A DNA stretch of 61,374 bases, counting the filler. It is 6 parts of 6 records of this genome, joined end to end, with 100 filler letters (N's around TTAATTAATTAA, not from the genome) between each part and the next. Parts side by side here need not be neighbours in the genome. Positions count along the whole stretch, not along the records: positions 12,482 to 28,090 come from SRR31156797_22515; 5 more parts are not named here. The stretch is one strand, 5' to 3'. Positions 10,989 through 28,090 of the stretch are shown here, piece by piece; position 1 is the stretch's first letter, and each line of letters opens with the position of its first letter. Under the pieces are notes generated by a model that searched no databases, was not told where the DNA came from, and worked only from the letters and a program-made list of their open reading frames with translations. The position numbers and the translations under genes are program-made.

Positions 10989-11032
10989 TTTGTCAAATTT
11001 GTAAATTCTTATTTAAAAATATTATTATCAGG

Positions 11033-11857: not shown

Positions 11858-11862
11858 ATTTA

Positions 11863-12380
11863 TCAGATGAGCGATAAAAGGCAGTTCTGAGATTGTGGAG
11901 GCGGGAAAGTTTCTTAGTTGAAACCGGAACAATTCGAACCAACCTTCGGGATGGCACAAAAGAAGAACCGAAGTTTGAACTTGATAGTCTGGAAATCAAA
12001 GTTCAGTCAATCATCGAAAGAAACCAGACGTTCTTTTATAGATTGAGTCATCAGGCAGGAGACCAAACGATTTCGGTCGCATAAGTCATACTGCACAACA
12101 AAAGTGGTAAAACACCGGAGTTGATTAAAGAATGCAAAAACCGAAAGGGAGATGCAGGAAAACTGAGTGACACTTCGTCCAGGAAGGCAATCTAGAATGC
12201 CGAACGGAATACCGAAAAGGTTTGCTGTAGAAAGCTAACCCGGAAAGTAAAGGGCTTAAATTAATTTGAAAAAGTTAAAGAAAGCCGGTCGTAATAACCG
12301 TAATCTGGCACGAGAGGAAACTTCGGTTACCTCAAGTGAATGGGAGCTATTCGTAACAGAGTAGTTCCCATTTGTGTTTT
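11863..12380 (+). ncRNA. Candidate large structured non-coding RNA (~510 nt), family not recognised
   Basis: Promoter upstream, terminator at the end and no credible ORF. More than ten hairpins with UUCG/GAAA loops, complementary loops GUCUGG/CCAGAC and long-range closing helices. Confidence 0.7.
12339..12380 (+). terminator. Intrinsic terminator closing the candidate ncRNA
   Basis: AATGGGAGCTATTC-GTAACA-GAGTAGTTCCCATT followed by TGTGTTTT. Confidence 0.75.
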
Positions 12381-12381
12381 A

Positions 12382-12481
12382 NNNNNNNNNNNNNNNNNNN
12401 NNNNNNNNNNNNNNNNNNNNNNNNNTTAATTAATTAANNNNNNNNNNNNNNNNNNNNNNNNNNNNNNNNNNNNNNNNNNNN
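12382..12481. other. Artificial contig spacer
   Basis: N44-TTAATTAATTAA-N44 (stop codons in all frames); gene content and composition change across it. Confidence 0.98.
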
Positions 12482-12501
12482 TACCGTTGATGCCAATCCA
12501 G

Positions 12502-12587
12502 TACTAACGCCGCGTTAAGGTGCGACAAACATAGCGTGCCATACTGTCGGCACGCGTTTGGAGTCACTCTTAAACGCTTTGTTAAGT
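12502..12587 (-). repeat. Integron attC site (short, ~86 bp)
   Basis: Minus strand begins ACTTAAC (RYYYAAC) and ends GTTAGTA (GTTRRRY-like), with imperfect dyad symmetry; directly after a cassette stop codon. Confidence 0.88.
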
Positions 12588-13295
12588 GCGTTTCCAAGGG
12601 GCGGCATCAAAAAACTTTAACTTAAGCCCAAGACTTTCTGCTTCTTGTAATTCAACCTGTATTTCATCAAACAAATTTGGCATTACATAATTCTTGAATT
12701 GAATTCGGTTCATCAGTATTGGTGTTAACTCCTCCTCACTGAGGGGAACGAGTTCTGAAAACAAATAGTTGTAAAAATTGAACACTGTCTTAAGCACTTC
12801 ATATGCGTGATTGTGACTCCAGAACATTGAACATTTGGGAATTTTCACTTGTTTATGTAATTTGCCTTCCAAGTCCATAGGTAGGTTCCAATTTTCCTTA
12901 CCATCTTCTGGTTTACCAATATCAGTTTTGATTTTGGTTCCTTTCTGATGCACAAACTGATTCCGGATTTGAAGTAACTCTTTAACTTTTTGAACTACAT
13001 TGCTCCCGTAGTCTAAGCCTGACAGCTGATGTTCAACTCGCAAGTACATGTCTATTTTAGATAGAGCGGGCATCCTGTCTAAATCATTTAATGTTTGCGG
13101 TGATACTTCAATTTGCTGAAGTAAAGCATTAGCGCAATTTTCAATGGACAGAACAGACGCGCAAATAGACGAGCGGGAAAAGCGGTTACATCTGTAACTA
13201 CTATTTTCACTCTGTTGCGCTTGAGTATGTTGTATCAATGCATCACACAGTAAGTCAAAGAATCCGACACGCATAAACTGAGCTGGAATTTTCAT
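12582..13295 (-). CDS. Integron cassette protein with HEPN-like R-x4-H motif
   Basis: Single ORF between two attC sites with matching GTTAAGTGC/GCACTTAAC ends; helical protein containing IRNQFVH. Confidence 0.7.
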   Translation of the reverse strand: MKIPAQFMRVGFFDLLCDALIQHTQAQQSENSSYRCNRFSRSSICASVLSIENCANALLQQIEVSPQTLNDLDRMPALSKIDMYLRVEHQLSGLDYGSNVVQKVKELLQIRNQFVHQKGTKIKTDIGKPEDGKENWNLPMDLEGKLHKQVKIPKCSMFWSHNHAYEVLKTVFNFYNYLFSELVPLSEEELTPILMNRIQFKNYVMPNLFDEIQVELQEAESLGLKLKFFDAAPWKRT

Positions 13296-13323
13296 ACGCT
13301 AAACCTTTATTTTCACCCTTAGC

Positions 13324-13449
13324 ACTTAACGCCGTGTTAAGTAGTGAGCAACGCAATACCGATGTCGCCGCATACCACCTTAATCACTAAAATCAACGTA
13401 TAGCAGAACTGCCACGCGTTGCGAATCTGCCTTAAACACTTTGTTAGTT
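13324..13449 (-). repeat. Vibrio superintegron attC (VCR/VXR-like, ~126 bp)
   Basis: AACTAAC...GTTAAGT ends on the minus strand, internal CAACGCGTGGC and GCGTTG arms typical of Vibrio repeats. Confidence 0.92.
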
Positions 13450-13470
13450 GCCAGACTGTGTAGGCTATCT

Positions 13471-13743
13471 TTAGTAATGGTAGCGACACGAAATTATAGT
13501 AATTGCCTGTTCATCAACGGCATAAACAAGCCTATTTGTATCATCAATACGCCGAGACCAAAAACCAGAAAGGTTCTCTTTTAATGGTTCTGGTTTACCA
13601 ATACCCTCAAACGGAGAACGCTTCACATCATTGATAAGTTTATTAATACGCTTAAGTGTTTTTTTGTCTTGGGTTTGCCAATACAAATAGTCATCCCAAG
13701 CGTCGTCAGTCCAAGATAATAGGCGTTGGCTACTACTCATCAA
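13471..13743 (-). CDS. yoeB: YoeB/Txe family toxin
   Basis: AWDDYLYWQTQDKKTLKRINKLI...PFEGIGKPEPLKENLSGFWSRRIDDTNRLVY...CRYHY. Confidence 0.96.
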   Translation of the reverse strand: MMSSSQRLLSWTDDAWDDYLYWQTQDKKTLKRINKLINDVKRSPFEGIGKPEPLKENLSGFWSRRIDDTNRLVYAVDEQAITIISCRYHY

Positions 13744-13987
13744 TTAACTCTCGTGCTGTTGTTTTACCAGCACGATACTGCGCTATTGAACGATTTAGGT
13801 GCTCTGCGTTTTGAGGAGAACGGAGTAAATGAACGGTTTCCATAAGGCTATTGTAATAGTCTAATGACATTACTACTGCATCTTCTGAATCGCGGCGAGT
13901 AATTACAGTTGTATCTGCATCATTCACTACACCGTCCAAAACTGACTTGAGACTATTTCTAGCTTCTGTAAAAGATACGATTCGCAT
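13733..13987 (-). CDS. yefM: YefM/Phd antitoxin
   Basis: MRIVSFTEARNSLKSVLD...VITRR..AVVMSLDYYNSLMETVHLLRSPQNAEHL; overlaps the yoeB start. Confidence 0.96.
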   Translation of the reverse strand: MRIVSFTEARNSLKSVLDGVVNDADTTVITRRDSEDAVVMSLDYYNSLMETVHLLRSPQNAEHLNRSIAQYRAGKTTARELIDE

Positions 13988-14000
13988 AAGAACCTCTACA

Positions 14001-14047
14001 TGTACATATAATGGAACAAGTATAGACTCACAGTTTGTACTTGTACA
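14001..14047 (-). promoter_or_regulatory. YefM-YoeB autoregulatory operator region
   Basis: TGTACA palindromes at 14001-14006 and 14042-14047 upstream of yefM; TGTACA is the known core of the E. coli YefM operator. Confidence 0.65.
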
Positions 14048-14076
14048 GCTAATTGGACATGCGGTATTGATATGGC

Positions 14077-14192
14077 AACTAACGCCGCGTTAAGGGGCAG
14101 CAACGCGCTACCACCAAACTTCAATTTACCACTGTAAACACAAATGCCAAGATTTAAGCCAAAGTTGCCACGCGTTGACTGTCCCTCTTGAG
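14077..14192 (-). repeat. Truncated attC (VCR-like) lacking its R'' end
   Basis: Matches the VCR pattern (C)TCAAGAGGGACAGTCAACGCGTGGC...GCGTTAGTT on the minus strand. The expected TAACAAACGC end is replaced by unrelated sequence from 14193. Confidence 0.8.
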
Positions 14193-14384
14193 AATCTCGA
14201 CTAACGATTCATATAGTCTAATACCGTCTCAAATCAAAACGTAACATATTGATATGAAATATTTTTTGCTGTTTTTGATATCTTTCGGTCTCACTGAGTC
14301 TCACACCTCTTTGCCCCCCTTGTGCCCCCCTGAATTCACCGCTAATGTGAAGGGGAACAGAACATTTTACTAAGGGGTAACAGC

Positions 14385-15728
14385 ATGGCTGGGATCAATA
14401 AACTACATGACACTACAATAAAAAAAGCAAAAGCAGGTGATAGAGAATATACGCTCGGAGACGGTGGAAACTTATTTCTTAGAATTCGCCCTAATGGAAC
14501 GAAAAATTGGATATTTGTCTATTCACATCCTCACACCAAAAAACGTATGAAGCTGGGTTTAGGTGCATATCCAGACACATCGCTCACTTACGCTAGAACA
14601 TTAGCAAAAGAGTACCGTAATCAACTTGCTCAAAGCATAGACCCAAAAATCTATCGTGAGAAACTACTATTAGAACATCAAATTAAACATCAAAACACGT
14701 TCTTATTTGTCGCTGAAAACTTTCTAAAAATGCAAGAAGACAAGGAAGCATTGAAGCGCAAAAAATTAATTGATGAAGCACAAATACTTGCTAGACAAAA
14801 TAACACTGATTTCGATGAGACGGATCTGGCAAAAATACATAATAAAGTTCGAACATCACATCGTAAGCGCCTTTTCTTGAAAAAGAATATCTACCCTGCT
14901 CTCGCAAATATGCCTATTACTGATATAACCGCGCCTGGTGTCATCAAAGTAATCGAACCCATAGCTGCATTAGGGAAATTGGAGAACGTAAAACGTGGCT
15001 GCGCCATAATGAATCAAATAATGAATCATGCAGTTAACCGTTCATTCGTTAAATTTAATCCTTTAAATGCCATTGCAGACGTTTTTGTGAAGCCGATATC
15101 TCAGTCAATGCCAACCGTTGAGCCAAAAGAGTTGGGTGATGTTATGAGGATTATGAGTAATTGCAACATGAAACATGTCACTCGCTGTGCTTTCGAAATG
15201 CAGTTCCATACGCTTACTCGAGCAGAAGAACTCGCATCAATGCGTTGGTGTGACATCAACTGGGATGAAAATCTTTGGACAATACCAGACTTCATGACCA
15301 AAATGCAGCGCCAGCATAGAATTCCATTGACTATCTATACCGCTGGAATTCTTCAACATATGAAAGCCATTTCTGGGGATGACAAATACGTATTTCCCTC
15401 TGACAAACTTGGTAGCAAGTTTCCACACATTAGTCCTTATGCAGTAAATTCGGCCTTACAGGCTACGCCCTTGAAGGGAAAGCTCGTAGCACATGGATTA
15501 AGATCGATAGGTAGTACGAAGCTCAATTCGGAAAAGTTTGATGAGGATGCTATAGAAGTGGCACTTTCTCACTTAGACAAAGACCGTGTTCGTGCTGCTT
15601 ATAATAAAAATGACTATTTGGAAGAACGCCAAGAAATCATGAATTATTGGAGCGACTTTATCGTACAGTCAACTGGAAAATACTATTCGATTGCAGGTCA
15701 ATATAAACCTGAAGATACAATAAGCTAG
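14385..15728 (+). CDS. P4-type tyrosine integrase with arm-binding domain
   Basis: N-terminal YTLGDGGNLFLRIRPNGTKNW...LGLGAYPDTSL; catalytic R (TLTRAEE), HGLRS, LSH and RAAYN. Confidence 0.95.
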   Translation: MAGINKLHDTTIKKAKAGDREYTLGDGGNLFLRIRPNGTKNWIFVYSHPHTKKRMKLGLGAYPDTSLTYARTLAKEYRNQLAQSIDPKIYREKLLLEHQIKHQNTFLFVAENFLKMQEDKEALKRKKLIDEAQILARQNNTDFDETDLAKIHNKVRTSHRKRLFLKKNIYPALANMPITDITAPGVIKVIEPIAALGKLENVKRGCAIMNQIMNHAVNRSFVKFNPLNAIADVFVKPISQSMPTVEPKELGDVMRIMSNCNMKHVTRCAFEMQFHTLTRAEELASMRWCDINWDENLWTIPDFMTKMQRQHRIPLTIYTAGILQHMKAISGDDKYVFPSDKLGSKFPHISPYAVNSALQATPLKGKLVAHGLRSIGSTKLNSEKFDEDAIEVALSHLDKDRVRAAYNKNDYLEERQEIMNYWSDFIVQSTGKYYSIAGQYKPEDTIS

Positions 15729-15832
15729 CGAGAGTAACCTCTCTCAATTTCAAATTATCTACGTATATATCGCACTCTGGTTAGCAGAGCGCGAAGGATT
15801 TTCGCAACGTAAAAACCATCAATAATGGAGAT

Positions 15833-16117
15833 TTGATTATGTTTAAATTAACTCAACCACAAGTAATGGGGTTAGTAGAAATGCTCGATGATTGCACACA
15901 GCATCCAACTGAATGCAGTTCATCTCTGATGTATCAAATAGGTTTTGACTACAACGATGTAATGTTGCTTATGTCTATGATTAATGAAATTCGCTCTAAC
16001 CCAAACATGAATATCATTCATTTCAAACATCGACGCCAACAAAATCTATTAAGCCTACTTGGAGGTATTGAACAACTCAAAGAGTGCATCCATCTAACGG
16101 ATGGATATCGCTCGTAA
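15833..16117 (+). CDS. Hypothetical protein
   Basis: 94-aa ORF with GGAG RBS downstream of the integrase; no family recognised. Confidence 0.55.
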   Translation: MIMFKLTQPQVMGLVEMLDDCTQHPTECSSSLMYQIGFDYNDVMLLMSMINEIRSNPNMNIIHFKHRRQQNLLSLLGGIEQLKECIHLTDGYRS

Positions 16118-16179
16118 CGCTATGAACGAGATTCCGACTAACCAATGTTCAGCTTACTCAACATGACAAGGATAACTCT

Positions 16180-16809
16180 ATGCGAACAGTAAAAAGCATG
16201 ACGCTCACCCATAAAGCACAACAAATTCTTGAACATAAGCTGAGTTATTGGCAACAACGCGGCTGGTGCAAAGCCAGCCAACCCTACCAATCCAAAGAAG
16301 GAACACTCTGCGTTGATATTCAGATTGAACAACGCCCTGTCATCTACACATCCATCAGCGGAGTTCTCTACCCTAATTGTCAAACCAAACAACAGCAAGC
16401 CATCGATGCTTATCACACTAGAAAGCTTACAAAACTTCAATTCATGCCAGAGGCCGTCAACATCTTGATTAAACTATTAGAAGCAACAGAAGCTAGATTA
16501 AAAGTACATTCTCACTGGCGTTATCGCTTATATGACGAACCACAAAGCATGACCGAACTTTTCGTTAATAATGGTTTTCAAGCTCACCATCTTCACCCTG
16601 ATTTTTTTGTCAAACTCAAAGGCCGCAACCATATCAAAGAGCATGACATCAATTTCTCGCTAAGTGATGATGCTTCCCAAAATATTGTTCTTGATACACG
16701 GGAACTAAATCTATACCCAGAGTTTCAAGTCTATCTAGTAACCGCAGAAAACGGATTTTCACTCAAGGATATGGCTCATGTTTTGTCTTTGATAGAAAAT
16801 GAGACCTAA
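16180..16809 (+). CDS. Hypothetical protein
   Basis: 209-aa ORF with AAGGA RBS; no family recognised. Confidence 0.65.
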   Translation: MRTVKSMTLTHKAQQILEHKLSYWQQRGWCKASQPYQSKEGTLCVDIQIEQRPVIYTSISGVLYPNCQTKQQQAIDAYHTRKLTKLQFMPEAVNILIKLLEATEARLKVHSHWRYRLYDEPQSMTELFVNNGFQAHHLHPDFFVKLKGRNHIKEHDINFSLSDDASQNIVLDTRELNLYPEFQVYLVTAENGFSLKDMAHVLSLIENET

Positions 16810-16847
16810 AGGTCTCATTCATATCTGTAAAACGTATATGGACAAAA

Positions 16848-17210
16848 TGTATGGTACGCCCCGTTTTGCAAGTGAAAAATCCAAATAACGGAGTTGGTTT
16901 GCGCTAATGTATTCAGAGTCTAATTGGGACACTGATTAGTTAGCCCCAGCTCTACGATGAGATCCGCGCCAGATTGTCCTCAAAAACGTGAAAGCACTCT
17001 AGTTGCTGTTCTGTCCATCAGGTCTTCAATCTGGTGGTCTAACCGTTTTGTCATCTTTCATTATCATATGCAAATCTAGATTAAACTCTTAATTCAAAGG
17101 GCATGTGACTTGTCATTACTGACCATGCAATCCTCGCTAGCTTATTTGCTAACGCAACTAGAGCAACATTAAAAGGTTTTCGACGTTTCAAATCTAATAA
17201 CCATTGACCT
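16848..17210 (-). mobile_element. IS110 family (IS1111 group) remnant: transposase C-terminus plus downstream non-coding end
   Basis: 17081-17209 translates GQWLLDLKRRKPFNVALVALANKLARIAWSVMTSHMPFELRV* (IS110 ALANKLARIAW motif). It is followed by ~230 nt of non-coding sequence ending CTTGCAAAACGGGGCGTACCAT, like an IS1111 subterminal repeat. Confidence 0.8.
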
Positions 17211-17385
17211 CCTCTTCGATGTTGTTGGTCAACATAGAGTCTGGCTATCAACTAGAACTGTTCCAGTCGCGACGAGATTCGGTCAGGGTGAATGAAACAT
17301 CCATGGACATTTCTGAGTTAGGTACAACTCTGCAACAAAGCAAAAAAGAGGTCGTATTGACCTCTATCATTGATTTGATTCGTAC

Positions 17386-18252
17386 TTAAGAGAACTCATC
17401 AACAAATTCTGGCGGTGTATTTGCAAGTATGTTCTCGTTTTTTATAAAAACTGTATTGGCAAACCAAACCAAATTTCTCAACGTCAATGGATAGTCAAAA
17501 CCTTTATAGTAAAGTTGATAGATAAAATCTTCTCTATCGACTCGGAAGAATTTTTTCGCTAGTTCGGTATCTGTATGAAAGAGCTGATTTATATCTTCAC
17601 CTAGTTCAAAGTCTTGAATTCTAAGCCTAAGTTTTTGCCTAAGCATCGCTTCCCAATTTTGTTGCTTGTAGTGTTTATATGCTACTCCTTCAAGTATTCG
17701 AATCATTGTCCATTCATTCGTTTCCAAAGAAGCATACACACCATTTAACTTTCGTGACTCTATAGCACTCTCATCCCAATCACCTTGATATTTATATCGT
17801 AAGTCATGCTCCACTTCATGCCATCCCTCAGATAAAACAGTCCTAATTTGAAGTTCAAATGTGTCATCTACACATCTTGAGTTTTCAAAGTCCAAATCAT
17901 AACTGTACTCACTAGGTAGTTCGTACACTAAGTTGTAACGCACTGGTTTAAATGTGTTGTCGTCAAGGTCATCTATACTGGCATCCTTTCGTCTTTCTGC
18001 ATATGTAGCACTCATTGCATTGTGGACTAATTCAATATCATCGGGAAAATACAAAACTATACGAATACCGATCATATCTTGTATTTTGGATAGTCCCTCC
18101 AGATACTTAGGTTTAGAATTTATTTTTCTTGTTAGTGAGCGAAGGTCTTTTGCTCTTGAGAATATGCGATACATAATCCCAATCTTATCAAGAGTACGCG
18201 TTATATCTTCTACAATAGCTTTTTCGACTAAAGATGGGAGTTTAGTTTTCAT
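17386..18252 (-). CDS. RelA/SpoT-domain nucleotidyltransferase (small alarmone synthetase-like)
   Basis: RAKDLRSLTRK, IQDMIGIRIV and FELQIRTVLSEGWHEVEHDLRYK motifs. Confidence 0.88.
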   Translation of the reverse strand: MKTKLPSLVEKAIVEDITRTLDKIGIMYRIFSRAKDLRSLTRKINSKPKYLEGLSKIQDMIGIRIVLYFPDDIELVHNAMSATYAERRKDASIDDLDDNTFKPVRYNLVYELPSEYSYDLDFENSRCVDDTFELQIRTVLSEGWHEVEHDLRYKYQGDWDESAIESRKLNGVYASLETNEWTMIRILEGVAYKHYKQQNWEAMLRQKLRLRIQDFELGEDINQLFHTDTELAKKFFRVDREDFIYQLYYKGFDYPLTLRNLVWFANTVFIKNENILANTPPEFVDEFS

Positions 18253-20408
18253 TACACTCTCCCTAACATCTCTTTGATAGCAACAATGCTATCCCTATTG
18301 ATTGCGATATACTCTCCATCATTCGCATCCCCAAGGATTTTTCGGGATTTCATGCGCCTGATTTCCACTGTGATTTGACGCTTTGAGTAACCCTGTTGTT
18401 GACACACCTTATAAATACTTGCCAAAGGTATATGCAGTCTATCAATCTGTGCAGACCCTACACGCCAATACCGTTCGAGAATTAGTCTTGTTAACTCATC
18501 AATCTCATCCACATCTTCTTCTGGTTTATATCCTTCGACATCATTGATAAAGCCATTATTATCAGTGCAATTCAAGAATAGAAAAGACTCTGTATTTAGA
18601 AGCTCCCCGCTAATTCTGCAACCATAAAACTTACAGTTAATAAACGTTATATCTTGCATATTCGCTGCTACAAACTCAATATCAGAGAAAACGCAGTCAC
18701 TAAATGATACTTCTTTTACAGAACGATTGTTGAACAGCCTGTACTGTTGAATGTTCAAAGACATTAGTGAGCATTGATCGTAATCGCCATCTTTAATCTC
18801 ATCTAACATGTTTAGCTCATATTTAAACCTATCAGATGCAGACAAAAATTCACTCATAGGCTTTAATAAACACCAAAGCTTTTGTCGTTCATCCGTATGT
18901 CTTGGAACATACGAAAGCACCGCTGGCTCAACAAATCTTTCGTCACTTGCCATCCAATCATTGTCACACTTTAATATGCTCTCAGCTATAAAGTTTCCAA
19001 AAACAAATTCGTTGACGAATTCAATACGTCCTTCTCCTTGATTACTACGATCAAAGAAGGCGTGATTAGACAAAGTGTTGCTCAGTGAATCAATTGAAGG
19101 ACGCTCACTAGCCTTATAAGACTTTCTTGCAAGCTCCAAAATTACAGAACATTTTTCTGATTTAAAGAACTCTATCAATTTTTCTTTCGACTCTGATGTG
19201 TAGTCTCGCTCACACATATCCTCTGCCAGCATCGTAAGAAGCGTACTTTGTCCTTCTGGTGTAATATGCAAGTTTTGACGCTCTTGTTCACGCTCCAGCA
19301 TACTATTGAAGTATTTAGTCACCAGCTCATCTGGTGAGTCACACAGCTCCTGAAACTTTTGATCATTTACGAATCGAAGATAAGATAATAAAACTGGATT
19401 CGACACCTCTTTGAGATTCAGCCCCACGTTTTCAACTTTGCTTAGCCTTGCCGCTCCCAGCCAATCACCAACATCAGGTCGCTCTATTCTATATCGCACA
19501 AAGCTGAACTTATCGTCGAACCTCTCAACCCACTCACTAAAAGTTGCACCATCAAACATGGCTGACTTCCTAGATGTGATAATGATTTTAGACTTCCCTT
19601 CTAGCAGTTCACTTATAGTTTCGAGCATAGGCTCTGCATTCTCATAATCTTCCGTAGATTCTGATTTTTGGGTGTCAGACAATAATTCATCAAATCCATC
19701 TAAAACCATTACAATTCGGCCATTCTTAAGTTCGTATTCGACGATATCTGAGTTCACCTGATTAAATGCTCTATCAACCTCTCTTACAAACACATGATTG
19801 AAAATTCTAGCTTGCCTGTCTCTTGAAAATTCCGTAAAGAAGGGAATAGGGTTACTATTATCTGAAATTAGAGTATTTATAAGCTCATATGATGTGCATG
19901 TTTTACCGAATCCAGCAGGTGCCTCTATGAGTATCAATTGAGCCTTGTCATCACTTAAGCGAGACACAATATCATCAATAATTTGAGGCGAAGGTTCCGA
20001 TTTGGAATTAACTACACTATATGGGGCATTTATATAGTCGTAAGATAGGTCACTTTCTTGATCGGGGTAGGCAAGCATTACTGATTCGACATATTCTTTA
20101 TATTCATTTCCTATGCGTTTACGCCAAGAGTCAACGTCAAAAAAACCTGCAAATAGACCTTCTTCAATCTCATCTAGTGTTGAGTATTCGGTAATCTTCG
20201 CAGAAATACCTAAATCATTAAGGCTCTTAATCTTTTTTTCAATCTGCTTTTTATCTTCTGCATCGTTCGAAATTTTTACAACTTCTGCATTGTGAAAGAA
20301 ACCTGACCTAAATGTGAATGTAAGATATGAGCGATTTGAATACTGCTTCTTGTATTCAAAGCCATACTTTCTATACTTTTCAATAACCTGACTTGCGCAT
20401 TGTTCCAT
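18252..20408 (-). CDS. NACHT/STAND P-loop NTPase with C-terminal pentapeptide-like repeats
   Basis: Walker A APAGFGKT, Walker B MVLDGFDE, sensor IIITSR, NPVLL motif, IEFVNEFVFGNFIAE segment; repeats VSFSDCVFSDIEF...ITFINCKFYGC. Confidence 0.85.
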   Translation of the reverse strand: MEQCASQVIEKYRKYGFEYKKQYSNRSYLTFTFRSGFFHNAEVVKISNDAEDKKQIEKKIKSLNDLGISAKITEYSTLDEIEEGLFAGFFDVDSWRKRIGNEYKEYVESVMLAYPDQESDLSYDYINAPYSVVNSKSEPSPQIIDDIVSRLSDDKAQLILIEAPAGFGKTCTSYELINTLISDNSNPIPFFTEFSRDRQARIFNHVFVREVDRAFNQVNSDIVEYELKNGRIVMVLDGFDELLSDTQKSESTEDYENAEPMLETISELLEGKSKIIITSRKSAMFDGATFSEWVERFDDKFSFVRYRIERPDVGDWLGAARLSKVENVGLNLKEVSNPVLLSYLRFVNDQKFQELCDSPDELVTKYFNSMLEREQERQNLHITPEGQSTLLTMLAEDMCERDYTSESKEKLIEFFKSEKCSVILELARKSYKASERPSIDSLSNTLSNHAFFDRSNQGEGRIEFVNEFVFGNFIAESILKCDNDWMASDERFVEPAVLSYVPRHTDERQKLWCLLKPMSEFLSASDRFKYELNMLDEIKDGDYDQCSLMSLNIQQYRLFNNRSVKEVSFSDCVFSDIEFVAANMQDITFINCKFYGCRISGELLNTESFLFLNCTDNNGFINDVEGYKPEEDVDEIDELTRLILERYWRVGSAQIDRLHIPLASIYKVCQQQGYSKRQITVEIRRMKSRKILGDANDGEYIAINRDSIVAIKEMLGRV

Positions 20409-20707
20409 CTAACCAGCTCTTTTTATTCATTTTAATTAAATTGATACTATCAGATTCTTATTTACTAATTCGAGCGCCCAAATACAAACTTGTTAACTAT
20501 CTCCTAGGCATACCCAAATGAACTTACTAGGTTTGCTTATCCCGACATAAGGTTTGAAAGCCTTAATAATGGCTTTATCAGACAAGTGACACATTAAAAG
20601 GAGTGATACAAATGTTATACCCAAACAAACTTTGGGGCAGGAGTTTGTTAGCTAGGATTACGCTGAGAAGCCCCTAGACAGTTTGAGTTGTAACGTGGCA
20701 GGTATAT

Positions 20708-21124
20708 TTATGTGTCTTGCCCCGGAAGTCCTTCATAGCTAGGCAGATTATCTAAATTCCTAGACCAGTTTGCACTACTACTAACAAAGATTTTAGCGGT
20801 AGGCTCAATTGAAATTATGCTATCTAGACTACCCGCAGGAACCACTACACTGTTAATACTTTCAGCTATCGTGGGAAGTGCAGACCCACATATTTGGCAA
20901 AAGCTTTTGGCATGCATTGAGTTTGGATGCTGGTAGGTTGTAACGTCACTTTCACCTTTCAACCAGGTTAACGTGCTCGCTTTAGCAAATAGATTAGCAG
21001 CATGAGCAGAACCGGTATCCTTTTGACAACGAATACAGTGACACAAAAAGAAAGACTGGAAATCACCAGAAAGCTCATATTTCACTCTACCACAAAGACA
21101 TGATCCTTGATGTTTACTGGTCAT
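20708..21124 (-). CDS. GFA/CENP-V family zinc protein
   Basis: GSCLCG, CHCIRCQK and FCQICGS cysteine pattern. Confidence 0.92.
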   Translation of the reverse strand: MTSKHQGSCLCGRVKYELSGDFQSFFLCHCIRCQKDTGSAHAANLFAKASTLTWLKGESDVTTYQHPNSMHAKSFCQICGSALPTIAESINSVVVPAGSLDSIISIEPTAKIFVSSSANWSRNLDNLPSYEGLPGQDT

Positions 21125-21337
21125 AAAAGCCCCCTTACTTTCGTTTACAAATTAGCTCCATTAAGTAGTGTGTACTGCCACAAAGCCAGTGATGACATCC
21201 CAACTCACTTCAATATTCAACCATAATCACATTGAATCATTAAAGAAATTTGGTCAAATAGTGAGTTAAAAATATGAGGAAAGTGCTCGTTCTAAATGAG
21301 AATGGGGCATAAGTGCGTTATTTTATTTCTACCGTTC

Positions 21338-21384
21338 TTGACGCTGATACCATTTAGCCTCAAAATAACTGTACATATATACAG
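21338..21384 (+). promoter_or_regulatory. Sigma70 promoter with LexA (SOS) box
   Basis: TTGACG-17nt-CAAAAT; CTGT-ACATATAT-ACAG at 21369-21384 immediately upstream of umuD. Confidence 0.9.
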
Positions 21385-21396
21385 TTATTTGAGTTT

Positions 21397-21822
21397 ATGA
21401 AAGTTATCCCAATTCTTGCAAGTGCCGGTATTACAGGCTTTGAATCCCCAGCAGCAGAATACGCTCAGCTGGGAATGAGCCTTGACGAACTACTAGTTGA
21501 GCATCCTAGTGCTACTTTCATCGGGCAAGCAATGGGTGAATCTATGCAGGGAATTGGCATCTTTGATGGTGACTTGTTAATTGTCGACCGACATGTCACC
21601 GTTCAAAACCATGATGTTATCGTGGCTAACTATAACGGTGAGTTCATTTGTAAGATGATCGATATGACACGTCGGTTACTCTTATCAGCAAATGAAACAA
21701 TGATGCCTGTCTACATTAATTCTCAAGATACGTTTTCGATTGAAGGAGTAGTAATTCGTTCAATTCGGTGCCACCGACCAAGCTACCTATTATCTTCTGG
21801 TGGTAAAGCATGTACGCGCTAA
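21397..21822 (+). CDS. umuD: UmuD/RumA-like S24 peptidase subunit of Pol V
   Basis: AGITGFESPAAEY, GESMQGIGIFDGDLLIVDR, GEFICK. Confidence 0.93.
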   Translation: MKVIPILASAGITGFESPAAEYAQLGMSLDELLVEHPSATFIGQAMGESMQGIGIFDGDLLIVDRHVTVQNHDVIVANYNGEFICKMIDMTRRLLLSANETMMPVYINSQDTFSIEGVVIRSIRCHRPSYLLSSGGKACTR

Positions 21823-23066
21823 TTGATGCCAACTCTTTTTACTGTAGTGCTGAGCAAGTTTTTCGTCCGGAGTGGCGAGGTAAGCCTCTCGTCGTACTAT
21901 CAAACAATGATGGCTGTGTAGTAGCAGCTAATCGTCAAGCAAAGGAAGCCGGAATACCTAAGTTCAAACCTTATTTTGAAGTTAAGGCTTTATGTGAATT
22001 AAAAGACGTCATTGCGCTATCCTCGAACTATGAACTCTATTCTGATTTGTCAGCAAAAATGATGGAAGTCATCGGGAGATTTGCACCTGACCAGCACATT
22101 TATTCTATTGACGAGTCCTTCCTGTCCTTCCATCGAACATACACTGCAATCAAAGATTTGCGAGAGCATGGAATTTTAATTAGACGAACCGTTTGGAAAG
22201 AATGTCGTTTACCTGTTTGTGTTGGCATGGGTACAACTCTGACCCTTGCCAAAATTGCGAACCATGCAGCTAAAAAGATTCAAGGCTATCAGGGCGTTTG
22301 TGTTATCGACAATGACAAAGAACGTATTGAGATATTGAAGAAATTAGAAGTCAGTGATGTATGGGGAATTGGCAGACGTATTTCAGCTCGTTTGAAACAT
22401 ATGGGTATAAATACGGCTTACGATTTAGCGCAGTACGCACCAGAAAGAGCACAACGCGAATTCTCTGTTGAGGTAGAGAGAACGGTTCGTGAGTTGAATG
22501 GTGTTGCTTGCAAAGTTTGGGATGCAGCTAGAGCAGATAAAAAGCAGATTTACTCGACTCGTAGTGTCGGGAAACGAATAACAAAACTTGAAGAGCTTGA
22601 ACAAGCTTTAAGTAAACATTCTGCTATCGCCGCTAGTAAAGCTCGTAAACAAAAGTCGCTGTGTAAGGTGATGTTGTGCTTTGCTTCTAACTCGCCATTT
22701 GATGACAAGCCTTGTAGTTTCCGTGTCGTTCATCGCTTTCCTTATCCCACTTCTGATTCAATCCAGCTCGTCAAAGTAGCAACCGATGCTGCTAAACAAT
22801 TGTTCAAACCTGGAGTTCGCTACTACAAGATTGGAGTAGGATTAATCGAATTGGTTGACGGACGGCATCAGCAATTAGATCTGTTAAATCAAACCCCAAG
22901 TAATGATAAGTTAATGGAGGTGTTTGATAGCCTCAATAATAGGTACGGAACTGATACACTTTTCATTGGTTCCCAAGGTATGGAACAGAAATGGAGTATG
23001 CGAAGAGAAATGCTTACTCCACAATACACAACTAAGTGGTTAGATATACCTAAAGTAAGGTGTTAG
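21810..23066 (+). CDS. umuC: UmuC/RumB-like Y-family DNA polymerase
   Basis: ALIDANSFYCS, VVLSNNDGC, SSNYELY, YSIDESF and the C-terminal WSMRREMLTPQYTTKW. Confidence 0.96.
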   Translation: MYALIDANSFYCSAEQVFRPEWRGKPLVVLSNNDGCVVAANRQAKEAGIPKFKPYFEVKALCELKDVIALSSNYELYSDLSAKMMEVIGRFAPDQHIYSIDESFLSFHRTYTAIKDLREHGILIRRTVWKECRLPVCVGMGTTLTLAKIANHAAKKIQGYQGVCVIDNDKERIEILKKLEVSDVWGIGRRISARLKHMGINTAYDLAQYAPERAQREFSVEVERTVRELNGVACKVWDAARADKKQIYSTRSVGKRITKLEELEQALSKHSAIAASKARKQKSLCKVMLCFASNSPFDDKPCSFRVVHRFPYPTSDSIQLVKVATDAAKQLFKPGVRYYKIGVGLIELVDGRHQQLDLLNQTPSNDKLMEVFDSLNNRYGTDTLFIGSQGMEQKWSMRREMLTPQYTTKWLDIPKVRC

Positions 23067-23153
23067 CAGCTCACTTCTGGACAAAAGTGATTTAGATATA
23101 TTGGAACGTCTGAGGCACATTGGACTAGAAAAAGTATCCGAAACACTTGTCAA

Positions 23154-23342
23154 CTAACCATTAATCATCTTACGTTTTAGCTCTTCAATTTTCTTCTTTT
23201 TTTGAATGAACCTTTCGTCTGCTTCCTTTTCAGTGACGTAATTTTTCATTTCTTTATTTAAATTATCTAAGCCACTCGTAAGCATTTCGAGACCATCATT
23301 AAGACCTTCCAAGATTTTATTGGCACATTCCAATTTTGACAT
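23154..23342 (-). CDS. Small coiled-coil hypothetical protein
   Basis: 62-aa ORF with AAGGA RBS. Confidence 0.55.
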   Translation of the reverse strand: MSKLECANKILEGLNDGLEMLTSGLDNLNKEMKNYVTEKEADERFIQKKKKIEELKRKMING

Positions 23343-23630
23343 AATGTTATCCTTACGATGATATTAAACTAATTAACTATACATCACCAAATGAGTTTGG
23401 TGCATCTTTTACAGTAACCCAGATGCCCATTCCGTGTCGTAAAAAGTGAGTTACAGCCCGTAAATTTTCTTCGGATTAACTAAGGTATGTAAAGGTCACG
23501 GTTAAGTTATATACCTTATCGAACCATACCTACAGTTTGCAATGTTCAAATGACAATTAACCCTGCTTATACAACTTCCACGTTTAAGATCATCTTACGT
23601 ATTTGGTATCATGCTCACCCTTTGAGCTAA

Positions 23631-24218
23631 CTAACAATACGTGGGATAAAACTCTTCAACTTCTATAGAGAAAATTTCATCATCTGAATGCTTTGAATAA
23701 TAGGTAGGGTCATAATAATCATCAACGAAATAATAGGATTGTGTAGACTGTTTAGGGACAGGGTAATCGCTAAATTTCGATATTCTTAAAGTTACATTTA
23801 ATCCTTTACGAGCAATATCTCTACCCGCTTCCGCGGCACAATGATAATAACGAAAATAGATGATTATTTTTGTTTTTGTAGCAAAAGGGTTGGGTCCATT
23901 ATCTTGACCGTAACCTATCATAGTACTAATACTGAATACGTGGAATTTCTTGAAGCGACGTAGCGAATTGTCACTTTCATGTTTCAGTTTATCTAATTGG
24001 TCTTGATACTCTTTACTATTATTTTCTTTCTTCAAATAGGTTCTTCTTAACTTTGAATACTTGTTTTCAGCCATGCGATGTGCATATAAACTAAATACCG
24101 CACTTGAGATTCGCCTGTATTCAGATATCCTCGACTCTGTTTCCCCATTATCCCGAACGTAGGGGATACCATCCATTCCCCATAAACCGTTGTCATAGCC
24201 ATACTGCCAATCCCCCAT
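23631..24218 (-). CDS. Hypothetical protein
   Basis: 195-aa ORF preceded by a purine-rich RBS; no family recognised. Confidence 0.6.
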   Translation of the reverse strand: MGDWQYGYDNGLWGMDGIPYVRDNGETESRISEYRRISSAVFSLYAHRMAENKYSKLRRTYLKKENNSKEYQDQLDKLKHESDNSLRRFKKFHVFSISTMIGYGQDNGPNPFATKTKIIIYFRYYHCAAEAGRDIARKGLNVTLRISKFSDYPVPKQSTQSYYFVDDYYDPTYYSKHSDDEIFSIEVEEFYPTYC

Positions 24219-24407
24219 ACCGACACTTCCCCTTTACTGCCAATCTGTCATATAAAATTATCCTTCTTTCTATACATCTATTGATATAAATAATTTAACC
24301 AATTGATTGTAACAAAGATGGTCCCTAAACACAGGATTAACCAGTTTCAGGGTATCTTCATGCTAGATAACTTAACCTCATTTGCTATTTTTAACCCACA
24401 AGATATA

Positions 24408-24821
24408 TCAGATAGTAAATTTAAAATATTCCGGACTATCGAATAATGGATTAGGTTTTACTGACGCATCTAGATACAAGCGGAGATCAGTACGGGAAGC
24501 ATAAAATTCTTGATAAATTTCAAACCCAAGAGACTCATAGAATGTTACGAGATTATCCTTAGTTACTTCACAATGTTCATCTGGTTGTGCTGAAATTTCT
24601 ATACACGCTTGGCTGCATTCAACTTTAATGTGTGCAATCGCGGCATTCAACAACTTACGAGCTATTCCGCTCTGACGTAACTGCGGTAACACATCTAAAC
24701 GTTCAATTGAATAAACCTTGTTTTGATGTTCATTTTTTCTCCACATACAATAACAATCTTCAGGATATTCTTCGAGGTGAACATAAAAATCGCCATCATT
24801 CCCGTTATATTCAATAATCAT
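24408..24821 (-). CDS. GNAT family acetyltransferase
   Basis: IERLDVLPQLRQSGIARKLL acetyl-CoA motif and LVTFYESLGF. Confidence 0.85.
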   Translation of the reverse strand: MIIEYNGNDGDFYVHLEEYPEDCYCMWRKNEHQNKVYSIERLDVLPQLRQSGIARKLLNAAIAHIKVECSQACIEISAQPDEHCEVTKDNLVTFYESLGFEIYQEFYASRTDLRLYLDASVKPNPLFDSPEYFKFTI

Positions 24822-25328
24822 ATTGCTTATCCCTTTTGTTGGTTCAATCTAGCACGCTTCAGGTAATGCCTTTTCGCTCTAAGCTATAAAAGCGAACTTT
24901 TAATTCAGAGTAAATCGCCACAAGCAAGTTAGATACCATGGTACATTACTAGAATTTGGGCTACTTGATACTTATTTAACTTCACAATCTAAAACTTGCT
25001 AGCACACTTTGGGGCAAAAGTAATTTGGATCGACTCAAATGATTTAAACAATGATTGAGTCCAGACAAATAAAATTAATTCCTATTTTAGAATTCACGAC
25101 AGATTTAAGTGAAATTTTCTAATCTCATTTGTCCATAAAAGTCTTATAACAAATTGAATTTAATCTACAACATGAAAAATTCATCACAATTCATCCACAC
25201 TTAATGAAAAGTTGAACTAATCCAACAAACAACTACCGAATCACGTTTTCTTTTTAAATGAAAGCGGCTTTCCCTAGGACACAGAAAGAAAGCCAGCGTG
25301 AAGCTGTCCATGTGAACGAAAAGTCGCC

Positions 25329-26957
25329 CTACAGCTCGTACTCACTGCTATCGCGTACACGTTCGTGATTTTTTTCATCAGCGAATAGCTCTCGAAGACT
25401 AGAAAGAAGTGGGTTAACCGCAGCGGGAAATTTATCTACCAACTTTTTCTCTATTTTATCTTTTAACTCACTCAAAACCGACAGGTTAGCACGATTGTTG
25501 CTCTTACTAACAAAGTACGAGAAAACCCCTCTTACGACCTTTATCAACTCAAATTTTATATCCTGAGTAATTTCTAGCAGCTCTTGTTTCTTCCGCTCAA
25601 TAAGCTTATCTAGGCGGCTTAAATCGCGAGTCTTTTCCTCTTCAGCTTTAGATAACTTGTTCACTGTCGTTTGCATTTCTTCAAACTCTTCACGGATGTT
25701 ATCCAATGCTGACATCCCGTGTTTCGTAGCGTCTTCGATGATAGTTCGCGTATCTTTCATCGCTTGAATCTCATCAGTTAATGATTGACGTTCATCTTGT
25801 AGCTTTGTCACTTCATTGTTTGATTCCAGAGCTTTCTGATAAGCTAACTGCTGCTGTTCTTTGAATAACGCTACTTTTTTTTCACTATCTTCAATTTGTT
25901 TTGTAAAGTAATTAAAATCACGAGCACTTTTCGCCCATCTGGATTGTCTCACCATATTACGATACTGCTCGCTCTTCTTTTCAGTATCACTGGTAAATAT
26001 AGCTTTCAGTTTTTTTTCACTGAGTAACCGCTCATTAGCGAGACGTTGAATAAGCTGCTGCAAATTATGCCCAAGTTTCCTCGTTTCTTTGTAGTCTAGC
26101 TTCCCATCCTCACAGAATAACTCTTCGCCAGAATGTTCTTTCGAAACGCTCAAATACTTATTCACAACAGCAATCATCGATTTTCGCAAATCATATTCAC
26201 CAGTTACACGGTTCCTCCCACTTAAAAAGTAATGGATATGCGCACCGGTGACGGATTGCTCATTCCGTTCATCATCATGAGCTATGACTGTTTTGATATC
26301 ATAGCTAGGAAAAAGACTACTTAGAATTTCTACTATAAAATTAATGTATTCTTGTAACGAAATAACATCAGTACCAACTTCCCATTTAGAGGGTATTTTA
26401 AATATCCCTTCTTGAACGTAAGTTGAATTTACGGGCGCAACATCATAGAGTTGGTTATGTAGAGTGATATAATCTTTTAGCTGTTTTATTCGTTGCTGTT
26501 TCCGAGGCATTTCTATTTGTTCAAAACACTCAATGCATGAGATATCTATTGCACCGCTATCTTGTGCAAGCACAGTATCTAATACGTTAACAGCTTCCAT
26601 GTACCCGCTTGCACACAGCGAACGTATAGAACTCTTTAGCGAGTGTTTTTTCTTGCGCCTATGTTCTTGAAGAGTTTTTTGTTTATGCAATTTTGGTTTC
26701 GGAGCAATATCTTCAAGTAACTCATTTTTGTCCTCGACAGTCATCTCATGAAGTAACTGCGTTCGACCATTTAACCAAATGAGGTTTTGGTCGCTTAATG
26801 CCGAATTCCACTCAATGTCTTTTTTATTGTGATTTTGCTCTGATTCAATTCGAAGTGAATGCATAAGAGAGATAGTGCATTTTTTTCTGTCCTCTGGTGA
26901 AGATGAGCTATTTATGGTACGAAAAAAAAGGTGGATATGTTTTGCTTTTAAGGACAT
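25329..26957 (-). CDS. Mobilisation relaxase, MOBV/Mob_Pre-like, with C-terminal coiled coil
   Basis: N-terminal HSLR; VIAHDDE...AHIHYFLSG HUH motif; long coiled-coil tail. ATG at 26957 has a GGAGGT RBS. Confidence 0.72.
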   Translation of the reverse strand: MSLKAKHIHLFFRTINSSSSPEDRKKCTISLMHSLRIESEQNHNKKDIEWNSALSDQNLIWLNGRTQLLHEMTVEDKNELLEDIAPKPKLHKQKTLQEHRRKKKHSLKSSIRSLCASGYMEAVNVLDTVLAQDSGAIDISCIECFEQIEMPRKQQRIKQLKDYITLHNQLYDVAPVNSTYVQEGIFKIPSKWEVGTDVISLQEYINFIVEILSSLFPSYDIKTVIAHDDERNEQSVTGAHIHYFLSGRNRVTGEYDLRKSMIAVVNKYLSVSKEHSGEELFCEDGKLDYKETRKLGHNLQQLIQRLANERLLSEKKLKAIFTSDTEKKSEQYRNMVRQSRWAKSARDFNYFTKQIEDSEKKVALFKEQQQLAYQKALESNNEVTKLQDERQSLTDEIQAMKDTRTIIEDATKHGMSALDNIREEFEEMQTTVNKLSKAEEEKTRDLSRLDKLIERKKQELLEITQDIKFELIKVVRGVFSYFVSKSNNRANLSVLSELKDKIEKKLVDKFPAAVNPLLSSLRELFADEKNHERVRDSSEYEL

Positions 26958-27190
26958 TAGCAACCTCCCTGGGGGGTTGCTAGAGCGTCGAGAGATACTT
27001 CTCTCGCCAACAGGTCACGTCCTACTCTTTTGCCCTGGCAAAAAGTTGGATGTAACCGTAGTTGGTTACTAAGGTGTTCGACTTTCGTCAAACTACTTAT
27101 TTCGTGCTCAATACACACTAGTGAATTAAGTAAGGAATAATCAGCGTGCAAAGCACTCTGATTAACTCTACAGAGTTTTAGTTGTTTCAT
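26957..27190 (-). CDS. Small ORF whose stop overlaps the relaxase start (possible leader/coupling peptide)
   Basis: AGGCGG-type RBS before the ATG; its TAA overlaps the relaxase ATG (TAATG). Confidence 0.45.
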   Translation of the reverse strand: MKQLKLCRVNQSALHADYSLLNSLVCIEHEISSLTKVEHLSNQLRLHPTFCQGKRVGRDLLAREVSLDALATPQGGC

Positions 27191-27241
27191 GTTTACCGCC
27201 TATTTATATAGATCTTATCGTTATGTTTGTTCGATTTATTT

Positions 27242-28045
27242 TTACACTGCGCTTCCTTTAAGGTCATTGAGTTCAGCTTGTACTTTTTCAGATATATCCA
27301 TCGCCTGCTTGACCACACTATCCTTTGCATTTTCATCAGGAATTTTAGTTATTAATTGATTAATCTGACCTTTTAGTGCTTGTATTTCTTCTTGAGACTT
27401 CTCGACCGTTATAGTGAGTTGCTTGCATTCCCATTGGGATTGAAAATAACCTTTTAGTTCTTCGTCTTTGGTTGATAATATATTATTTAATGTTTCAATT
27501 TCGTTTCTTAAATAATCGTTATCTCGATCTAACCGACTCACATCACCCTCAAGAGACTTAACCTTAACTAATTCACTTTTAAGTCGATTTATACCATCTA
27601 TCAGCTCTTTTTCCTTCGACTCTAAATCATCTATGACTTCATATAACTCTTCGTGTTCACTGTATGCCTGATTAAGTTTAGCTTCCATGATTTCTGTCTT
27701 AGCTTTTACCGTCGCTTGAATATCCTGGTCAATATCATTCCATGCATGATTCATCGAGTCCTCAATACTTTTGAATATTGTCTTCTGTACATCGGCGTAC
27801 CATTCTGGCTTATCTCTTATAGCTACAGCGGGTTTCATGGCTCGGGTTATCACTTTATAGGCAATACGAGCTTTCGAGTACTCCCCCCCAACCATATTAC
27901 GCAATGCCCTAGCGCTCGATGGAGCACTACCGTCTGAGAAACATTGCAAGTAATTCGAAAAAGGTATCCCCGAATTTGGGTTCTTGTCCTTTTCTAACAT
28001 CTTTGCATTAAACTCTTCCTGCAATTCATTTTCATTCATAGCCAT
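27242..28045 (-). CDS. KfrA-like DNA-binding coiled-coil protein
   Basis: N-terminal SARALRNMVGGEYS resembles the KfrA_N HTH; the rest is heptad-rich coiled coil; GGAGG RBS. Confidence 0.6.
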   Translation of the reverse strand: MAMNENELQEEFNAKMLEKDKNPNSGIPFSNYLQCFSDGSAPSSARALRNMVGGEYSKARIAYKVITRAMKPAVAIRDKPEWYADVQKTIFKSIEDSMNHAWNDIDQDIQATVKAKTEIMEAKLNQAYSEHEELYEVIDDLESKEKELIDGINRLKSELVKVKSLEGDVSRLDRDNDYLRNEIETLNNILSTKDEELKGYFQSQWECKQLTITVEKSQEEIQALKGQINQLITKIPDENAKDSVVKQAMDISEKVQAELNDLKGSAV

Positions 28046-28060
28046 GAGAATATCCTCCCC

Positions 28061-28090
28061 CTGCTAAGACTGCTAAGACTGCTAAGACTG
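28061..28090. repeat. 9-bp tandem direct repeat (CTGCTAAGA, at least 3.3 copies, cut by the contig end)
   Basis: CTGCTAAGA at 28061, 28070 and 28079 plus CTG, directly upstream of the RBS of the KfrA-like gene. Confidence 0.9.

Follow-up and report, generated by a model that had tools for sequence, protein, structure and literature searches.

To our knowledge, the effector of bacterial NOD-like receptor (NLR)-like defences is carried on the same polypeptide. For bacterial NACHT proteins, protection from phage is established (Kibby et al., bioRxiv 10.1101/2022.07.19.500537), and the available text of that preprint names pentapeptide repeats as a type of sensor and alarmone synthetases as a type of effector, with the tested genes lying only rarely in operons, and those poorly conserved. 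A RelA/SpoT-type enzyme can also act as an anti-phage effector, as is described for CapRel, the known defence of this type, which senses phage by itself (PMC9712102, in the part available). In fungi, NLRs with a fused N-terminal RelA_SpoT domain are described in the accessible parts of two preprints (bioRxiv 10.1101/2024.11.26.625400; bioRxiv 10.1101/2022.03.16.484565). Here, a 61,374-nt window (the whole stretch of DNA that was analysed) was found to encode, on its minus strand, a NACHT protein (gene 1) followed directly by a separate RelA/SpoT-type synthetase (gene 2). It appears reasonably probable that this pair is a self-contained, horizontally mobile two-gene NLR-type immune module. The nearest homologues of both proteins are in Vibrio, with gene 1 matching V. 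vulnificus at 95% and gene 2 matching V. alginolyticus at 92%. The features of the pair, with the evidence used for each, are listed below.

18252..20408, minus strand: gene 1, a 718-aa NLR-like nucleoside triphosphatase (NTPase) of the STAND (multidomain signal-transduction ATPase) type; open reading frame (ORF), Pfam, AlphaFold2 (AF2) model and Foldseek.
20013..20387, minus strand: NA-iREase2, residues 8-132 of gene 1, restriction-endonuclease fold and predicted synthetase docking site; PF22723, E 2.4e-29.
19509..19952, minus strand: NACHT domain, about residues 153-300 of gene 1; Walker A EAPAGFGKT, Walker B/signature DGFDE, sensor-1 TSR.
18804..19508, minus strand: helices and winged helix belonging to the NACHT module, about residues 301-535; AF2 helices and full-length Foldseek alignments to NLRs.
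18564..18776, minus strand: pentapeptide-repeat beta-helix, about residues 545-615, candidate sensor; sub-threshold Pfam match and model strands.
18264..18446, minus strand: winged-helix-like domain at the C-terminus, about residues 655-715, which might sense or tether; AF2 model.
18250..18263, minus strand: gene junction, with GGGAG at 18263-18259, TAA at 18254-18252 and ATG at 18252-18250.
17386..18252, minus strand: gene 2, a 288-aa synthetase-only RelA/SpoT enzyme of the small alarmone synthetase type; ORF, Pfam, AF2 and Foldseek.
17782..18159, minus strand: RelA_SpoT synthetase core, residues 32-157 of gene 2; catalytic residues and alignment to RelQ chains.
17389..17664, minus strand: helical C-terminal tail, residues 197-288 of gene 2, predicted docking element; AF2 helices 200-287.
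17347..17365, minus strand: terminator-like hairpin with a T run behind it, 21 nt past the synthetase stop; consensus scan.

An earlier note on this DNA had proposed two ORFs here, overlapping in TAATG, and both were read from the sequence on the minus strand at the positions listed; the motifs that it quoted were all found (EAPAGFGKT, LDGFDE and IITSR in gene 1, QDMIG and ELQIRT in gene 2). Its length of 718 aa for gene 1 holds, but the N-terminal part, which it had left as an unknown domain of ~150 aa, belongs to a family named in Pfam as "NACHT-associated inactive restriction endonuclease 2" (PF22723). Conserved acidic and lysine catalytic residues of the PD-(D/E)xK kind are not found in this domain, whose Pfam name itself says inactive. 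Among the invariant and near-invariant columns within residues 1-150 of a 44-sequence alignment there is no D, E or K, as would be expected of a dead nuclease. The NACHT module that follows scores only just above the Pfam cut-off (PF05729, 28.4 bits versus 26.7), with a second Pfam match to NPHP3_N (29.8 bits versus 24.8). It contains the Walker A pattern GxxxxGK[ST] (APAGFGKT at 163-170) and the D[GAS]hDE signature as defined by Kibby et al. (D237-G-F-D-E241), and E162, A163, A165, G166, G168, K169 and T170 are invariant in the 44 gene 1 sequences, as are D237, G238, F239, D240, E241, T278 and R280. Foldseek searches with the AF2 model (predicted local distance difference test, pLDDT, 83.7) gave NLRP2, NOD2, NLRP3, NLRC4 and Avs4 as the top PDB matches (E 3e-11 to 2e-8), with low template modelling (TM) scores (0.2-0.3) that reflect a different placement of the domains. 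Sequence and fold alike support the view that gene 1 is a genuine NLR-like protein of the NACHT clade.

Towards the C-terminal end of gene 1, the pentapeptide-like repeats and the winged-helix-turn-helix-like tail of the earlier note could both be recognised. Pentapeptide_4 matches residues 559-602 with 23.9 bits, under the cut-off of 38; in the model, short strands follow one another at 547-612 in the manner of a beta-helix, and a ladder of F and C residues (F569, F574, F589, C592, F594, C597) is kept in the 44-sequence alignment. The tail is modelled as helix-helix-strand-strand (helices 662-671 and 676-688, strands 692-694 and 700-703) and is without a Pfam match. Conservation along gene 1 is highest in the NACHT NTPase (0.63), lower in the pentapeptide region (0.42) and lowest in the stretch 636-718 with the winged helix (0.38), a fast-varying C-terminal end of the kind that would be usual for a sensor. 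Qnr and MfpA are examples of pentapeptide-repeat proteins that act as DNA mimics. As speculation, the pentapeptide sensor might serve as bait for a phage DNA-binding protein. Gene 1 resembles the described bacterial NACHT proteins, so far as the available text goes, in its central NACHT with D[GAS]hDE, its C-terminal repeat or short sensor, its N-terminal output domain position and its NLR-like fold; it differs in that the N-terminal domain appears to be a dead nuclease and the enzyme is encoded by a separate, coupled gene.

Gene 2 has a single Pfam match, RelA_SpoT (PF04607, residues 32-157, E 8.1e-17); no hydrolase domain was found in the Pfam scan, and the AF2 model (pLDDT 90.9) comprises the synthetase core, a long conserved helix at 163-196 and a helical tail at 200-287, so that the 288-aa synthetase with a helical tail of ~90 aa stands as the earlier note had drawn it. 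The residues R33, K35, S39, K43, D59, R64, F101, N107, E133, Q135, R137, H149 and K154 are invariant in 46 synthetases and align to ATP-binding and catalytic positions of RelQ chains; of these, R33, K35, D59, F101, N107, E133, Q135, R137, H149 and K154 are also invariant in a wider alignment of 75 rows. Judged by these residues and those of the NACHT domain, the active sites of both the NTPase and the synthetase are intact. An atlas look-up with the tail alone gave a best score of 0.77, under any useful level.

The best sequence and fold matches of gene 2 are RelQ and RelP (PDB 5dec, 5ded, 6ewz, 2be3; Foldseek E ~1e-7), which share its ATP-binding and catalytic residues; gene 2 differs from them in the extra conserved helix, the 90-aa tail, another G-loop motif and the NACHT linkage. 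The match to the NCBIfam equivalog for YjbM GTP diphosphokinase (NF053588) has an E value of 1.9e-10 and lies below its cut-off (40.9 bits versus 320). CapRel is far behind (7ztb, E 7e-4, TM 0.37). In the part of PMC9712102 available, CapRel is likewise described as having a RelA/SpoT-type synthetase as output, a C-terminal extension in control and activation by a phage cue, but it is a single protein in which one C-terminal pseudo-zinc-finger domain both keeps the enzyme inhibited and detects capsid. In the present pair, a separate NTPase is given the sensing role, the tail is a predicted docking element that is all-helical in the model, and the G-loop aromatic residue is an invariant Phe (F101), as opposed to Tyr in RelQ (own alignment) and Y155 in CapRel (PMC9712102, same part). 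A fused enzyme of the CapRel type is thus not what the tail and the fold ranking indicate. Toxic small alarmone synthetase (toxSAS) operons (FaRel, FaRel2, PhRel, PhRel2, CapRel; PMC7229694, main text) are similar in having a synthetase-only enzyme in a conserved, often overlapping two-gene operon, and gene 2 is indeed a synthetase-only RelA/SpoT enzyme with an intact active site; the partner here is a 700-aa STAND NTPase and not a small antitoxin or hydrolase, and no mention of NACHT or of an ATPase was found in that main text (Jimmy et al. 2020). The part of the earlier note's label that stands is the RelA/SpoT enzyme; its "toxSAS" finds no support in the nearest solved relatives, which are the housekeeping (p)ppGpp synthetases RelQ and RelP and not CapRel. 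The fungal NLRs, in the accessible parts of the two preprints, share with this locus a NACHT module and a RelA/SpoT-type output domain, but combine them in one polypeptide with ankyrin, WD40 or TPR sensors, whereas two proteins are joined here through a predicted adaptor.

To follow the linkage of the two genes, a scan anchored on the synthetase was carried out with one genome per species, giving 80 loci from the Pseudomonadota, Bacteroidota, Bacillota and Mycoplasmatota. Of the 80, 55 have a NACHT homologue as the next gene upstream, on the same strand, and the remaining 25 consist of 15 long-form outgroup loci, 8 stand-alone copies from gut Bacteroidales and 2 loci cut by a contig end. In the reverse direction, anchored on the NACHT protein in metagenomes, the synthetase was found downstream on the same strand in 76 of the best 80 of 169 confirmed loci, with the other 4 cut by contig ends. 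Homologues therefore co-occur in both directions, as the earlier note had proposed to check, and the two genes form a near-obligate cassette whose pairing is kept in Pseudomonadota, Bacteroidota and Bacillota alike. It has no conserved third gene: among the 55 linked loci, 3 is the most in which any neighbour family occurs, and no conserved small ORF was seen.

The stop of gene 1 and the start of gene 2 share one base, a Shine-Dalgarno-like GGGAG lies 6 nt before the gene 2 ATG, and in 51 of 55 related loci the distance from NACHT stop to synthetase start falls between -11 and +12 nt. The two genes are supported as a translationally coupled unit. The terminator-like hairpin past gene 2 is weak evidence alone, because the region holds 2 sites of this kind where 2.2 would be expected. 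No ORF was found in the 350 nt upstream of the pair, and a 61-aa ORF at 17204..17389, which overlaps the 3' end of the synthetase gene, has no match in any compared locus.

A quick maximum likelihood tree of the synthetases was constructed from 79 rows, after two rows shorter than 200 aa had been dropped. The synthetases of ~290 aa form a single clade with a Shimodaira-Hasegawa-like approximate likelihood ratio test (SH-aLRT) value of 100, containing 55 NACHT-linked rows (54 loci and the window), 8 stand-alone copies in two gut Bacteroidales clades and 1 contig-cut row. The 15 long forms (596-901 aa, from Lachnospiraceae and relatives) fall outside this clade. Across 47 complete pairs, the pairwise identities of the two proteins are correlated with r = 0.94, a value as high as which was seen in 0 of 2000 permutations; since related sequences share history, this shows joint inheritance and transfer and not co-adaptation as such.

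The cassette is both widely and thinly spread. It spans three phyla and was found in marine, soil and gut metagenomes, and PF22723 occurs in only 2 of 400 gammaproteobacterial species genomes, one of which is the seed. Plasmid-borne copies are known from Pantoea and from Klebsiella pneumoniae, the latter on a conjugative IncF plasmid; on this IncFIB/IncFII plasmid (L081, OW967220.1 1-10726), the pair is flanked by a XerD-like recombinase on one side and a repressor annotated as PifC on the other. No near-identical copy of this Klebsiella plasmid pair was found in complete E. coli genomes. Two metagenome-assembled genomes (MAGs) from the same sample series, one labelled "Turicibacter" (L003) and one "Aeromonas" (L017), carry almost identical pairs with branch lengths of ~0.01, which reflects either very recent transfer or a binning error.

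Modelling of the pair as a complex, also proposed in the earlier note, was carried out with residues 1-710 of gene 1 and the whole of gene 2. The complex score was 0.61, compared with 0.01 for the best of three controls; when calibrated, 51 of 78 solved complexes attain this mark, as do 2 of 108 mismatched pairs and 7 of 44 blind neighbouring gene pairs. Three runs share at least 82% of contacts, with a partner pLDDT of at least 80. The predicted interface joins residues 18-68 of NA-iREase2 to the first helix of the synthetase and to three stretches of its tail (211-215, 253-260, 280-286), and the synthetase active site lies outside it. The modelling thus supports direct contact of the two proteins. 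The interface positions were compared in 75 of 81 synthetase rows, six rows shorter than 250 residues having been dropped. P255 is kept in 51 of 52 NACHT-linked synthetases, 1 of 8 stand-alone forms and 4 of 15 long forms, and P280 in 52 of 52, 3 of 8 and 0 of 15, respectively, whereas the catalytic residues are unchanged in all 75 rows of all three groups. Interface prolines that are kept with NACHT and lost without it can be taken, at the level of sequence, as an independent check on the predicted contact.

Cases in which the synthetase occurs without a working partner bear on the direction of control. Intact synthetase ORFs lie beside a broken NACHT gene at four loci, where the NACHT gene is interrupted by a DDE transposase (L010), interrupted by an rve-type insertion sequence (IS) (L012), carries an in-frame stop (L001) or carries a frameshift (L007). 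The stand-alone synthetases of ~290 aa make up the two gut Bacteroidales clades (L040, L044, L047, L057 and L046, L055, L058, L071). Since the synthetase appears to be tolerated without its partner in both settings, the NACHT protein is more likely to be an activator than an antitoxin, and would activate rather than restrain the synthetase. The earlier note had left activation and release side by side; release, and with it constitutive toxicity, is the option that the four broken loci and the two lone clades argue against. Either the stand-alone Bacteroidales copies descend from immune effectors that were taken over for ordinary physiology, or the change went the other way.

Domain fusions were seen in a few relatives. 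An HD_4 domain (RelA/SpoT-type hydrolase) is fused behind the synthetase in one NACHT-linked copy (L016:2395-3669) and in one database representative (P0257), where it is possibly a built-in off-switch, and a NUDIX domain is carried by two long forms. Both kinds of fusion fit a pyrophosphorylated product that can be removed, without telling a nucleotide from a tRNA. The long forms (loci L063-L070, L072-L075, L077-L080; proteins P0316-P0394) have the same N-terminal enzyme, and a C-terminal extension of ~330 aa without a Pfam match is common to 27 of 33 extended representatives. A fused NACHT-synthetase was found neither among proteins of 505-2000 aa (5 matches, all long forms of ~625 aa) nor in the best 150 of 243 representatives at E <= 1e-30, in which the synthetase is always N-terminal; both are weak evidence of absence.

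Taken as an immune module, the pair might work as follows. Gene 1 would be both sensor and switch, its variable C-terminal end (pentapeptide beta-helix and winged helix) binding a trigger, which would be a phage-derived or infection-derived cue. The NACHT NTPase would act as an oligomerisation switch, the protein oligomerising upon the cue, and the dead nuclease NA-iREase2 would be an adaptor and not an enzyme, holding the synthetase by its C-terminal helical tail. Oligomerisation would then cluster or unlock the bound synthetase, which would move pyrophosphate from ATP to an acceptor, either GDP/GTP to give (p)ppGpp, ADP/ATP to give (p)ppApp, or the 3' end of tRNA. Growth or translation would halt, and phage multiplication with them. 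We infer the trigger, the product, the direction of control and the anti-phage role, the last of these from the analogy with tested bacterial NACHT proteins and CapRel together with the mobile, patchy distribution.

Several observations weigh against this interpretation. The pair is absent from the models of PADLOC v2.0.0, the catalogue search that the earlier note had suggested: no model was found for gene 1 (best TRIP13, E 0.012), gene 2 is a weak match only (candidate PDC-S33, 24.5 bits), and the pair matches no PADLOC system, whether Avs/AVAST or another catalogued STAND defence. No full-length match of the pair was found in 50,697 phage records. For the neighbourhood, the closest ORF with 120 aa or more was taken to the left and to the right of the pair, which gave 96 proteins from 51 of the 55 linked loci (4 loci were without such a neighbour), and the control was 43 of the 45 nearest neighbours of unlinked relatives, two from contig-end loci (L014, L049) having been left out. 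With counts that are floors and are reported per family and not per protein, PADLOC matches (E <= 1e-8) were found for at least 7 of the 96 neighbours of the pair (mad3 twice, a type III methyltransferase, PD-Lambda-4_A, PDC-S70, a type I specificity subunit and PD-Lambda-5_A) versus at least 4 of the 43 control neighbours (CARF-HEPN twice, CARF_ADA and subtilase/IetS). The two CARF-HEPN matches among these 43 come from a pooled control that mixes long-form and stand-alone Bacteroidales loci. These counts show no defensible enrichment and give the anti-phage role no backing. The synthetase is, moreover, nearest to housekeeping RelQ/RelP and not to the known toxic synthetases. Close relatives stand alone among housekeeping genes, so an immune effector role is not intrinsic to the family. 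As for the complex score, it expresses model confidence and is not a measurement, and blind neighbour pairs sometimes pass its mark. Finally, the stop and the frameshift at L001 and L007, which are draft or MAG assemblies, may be sequencing errors.

As a first alternative, the pair would be a stress-signalling module, in which the STAND NTPase senses a cellular cue (a metabolite, or the state of DNA through the winged helix) and (p)ppGpp feeds the ordinary stringent response, to the gain of the mobile element or host under stress and with no phage role. We regard this as unlikely. It would accord with the nearest relatives being (p)ppGpp synthetases (RelQ 5dec, E 1e-7; NCBIfam YjbM, E 1.9e-10), with defence neighbours not being in excess over the control, with the absence of a PADLOC system match, and with DNA-binding STAND proteins such as MalT (a weak NCBIfam match here) and AfsR being able to regulate transcription. 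Both the stand-alone and the long forms have housekeeping neighbours, those of the stand-alone copies including malate dehydrogenase, transporters and SpoIIE-type phosphatases. It accords poorly with the patchy distribution (PF22723 in 2 of 400 genomes), with the pair crossing phyla as a unit, with copies on plasmids and beside integrases, with IS insertions in the sensor gene and with the sensor end varying fastest; such patchiness, mobility, insertion and sensor variation typify systems of conflict, as distinct from core physiology.

A toxin-antitoxin or addiction module, in which a constitutively toxic toxSAS is held by the NACHT protein as a large antitoxin and stabilises the carrier element, is in our estimate improbable. 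Such an arrangement would fit the overlapping bicistron with the putative neutraliser first, like the toxSAS operons in the main text of Jimmy et al. 2020 (PMC7229694), the predicted direct contact, the plasmid-borne copies and a YoeB/YefM pair on the same contig piece. The four loci with a disrupted NACHT gene and an intact synthetase ORF are hard to reconcile with it, as are the eight stand-alone copies with invariant catalytic residues; in addition, the predicted interface is the tail and not the active site, and a conserved, catalytically intact NTPase of 700 aa with a variable sensor end far exceeds the needs of an antitoxin. The immune module is the interpretation that we prefer.

The immediate surroundings of the pair were read on one piece of the window. 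Five linkers of the form N44-TTAATTAATTAA-N44 (12382-12481, 28091-28190, 41345-41444, 49973-50072 and 56242-56341) show the window to be a chain of at least six unlinked contigs, with a GC content that ranges by piece from ~30% to 62%, a spread that suggests a draft or binned assembly and possibly more than one organism. The piece at 41445-49972 has a GC content of 55-62%, long ORFs of 562 and 1237 aa and a composition unlike the rest of the window. The pair itself sits on a 15.6-kb piece, 12482..28090. Because of the linkers, neither GAPDH on the right nor the genes on the left (SusC/SusD, FecR and sigma factor) count as true neighbours of the pair, and the claim of a mobile island was judged on the 15.6-kb piece alone, on which the following features were identified.

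13471..13987: YoeB/YefM toxin-antitoxin pair.
14385..15728: integrase of the Arm-DNA-bind_3 island type, not an integron integrase.
20708..21124: GFA-family protein, directly upstream of the NACHT gene.
21397..23066: UmuD/UmuC translesion polymerase pair, upstream of the NACHT gene.

The integrase, YoeB/YefM and UmuDC agree with the mobile island of the earlier note, whose ends could not be located; no tRNA and no convincing flanking direct repeat was found for them, and there are no Rfam matches in 10000-30000. Three copies of an imperfect repeat (TAACGCCGCGTTAAG ... GCCACGCGTTG ... CTTAAACACTTTGTTA) occur at 12503-12528, 13325-13350 and 14078-14103, together with the intergenic stretches around them, and flank single-gene units, namely a 237-aa protein without known function and the YoeB/YefM pair. 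We presume these repeat-bracketed units at 12503-14103 to resemble a Vibrio integron-type cassette array in layout.

With respect to novelty, the component parts are already catalogued, including NA-iREase2 as a Pfam family, and the conserved two-gene form is without description in the literature searched. No description of the pair was found in the available texts of PMC13581612, PMC13092281, PMC7159879, PMC8195603 and 10.1101/2024.10.26.620412, and within that literature, as far as the texts extend, only Kibby et al. mention alarmone synthetases with NACHT. No text was found on a conserved two-gene form, an adaptor contact or experiments, although supplementary tables may list the clade. The novelty suggested in the earlier note is reduced by the Pfam name of the N-terminal domain and by the mention of alarmone synthetases among NACHT effectors.

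More tentatively, the pair can be seen as an NLR with an alarmone output, in which a dead-nuclease adaptor carries the synthetase and pathogen sensing is wired into the stringent response; it would then be the counterpart, and possibly the source, of the fungal RelA_SpoT-NACHT receptors, and the contact between NA-iREase2 and the helical tail would be a new effector-recruitment pair. This fuller version is possible but doubtful. The predicted interface and the loss of its prolines in unlinked relatives lend themselves to cheap, direct mutational tests. If the interpretation is true, the cassette joins two lines, an NLR-type switch and a free-standing alarmone-type synthetase, and it would serve as a clean system for NACHT oligomerisation activating a separate enzyme, as well as a model, in bacteria, for those RelA_SpoT domains in fungal NLRs that are as yet unexplained.

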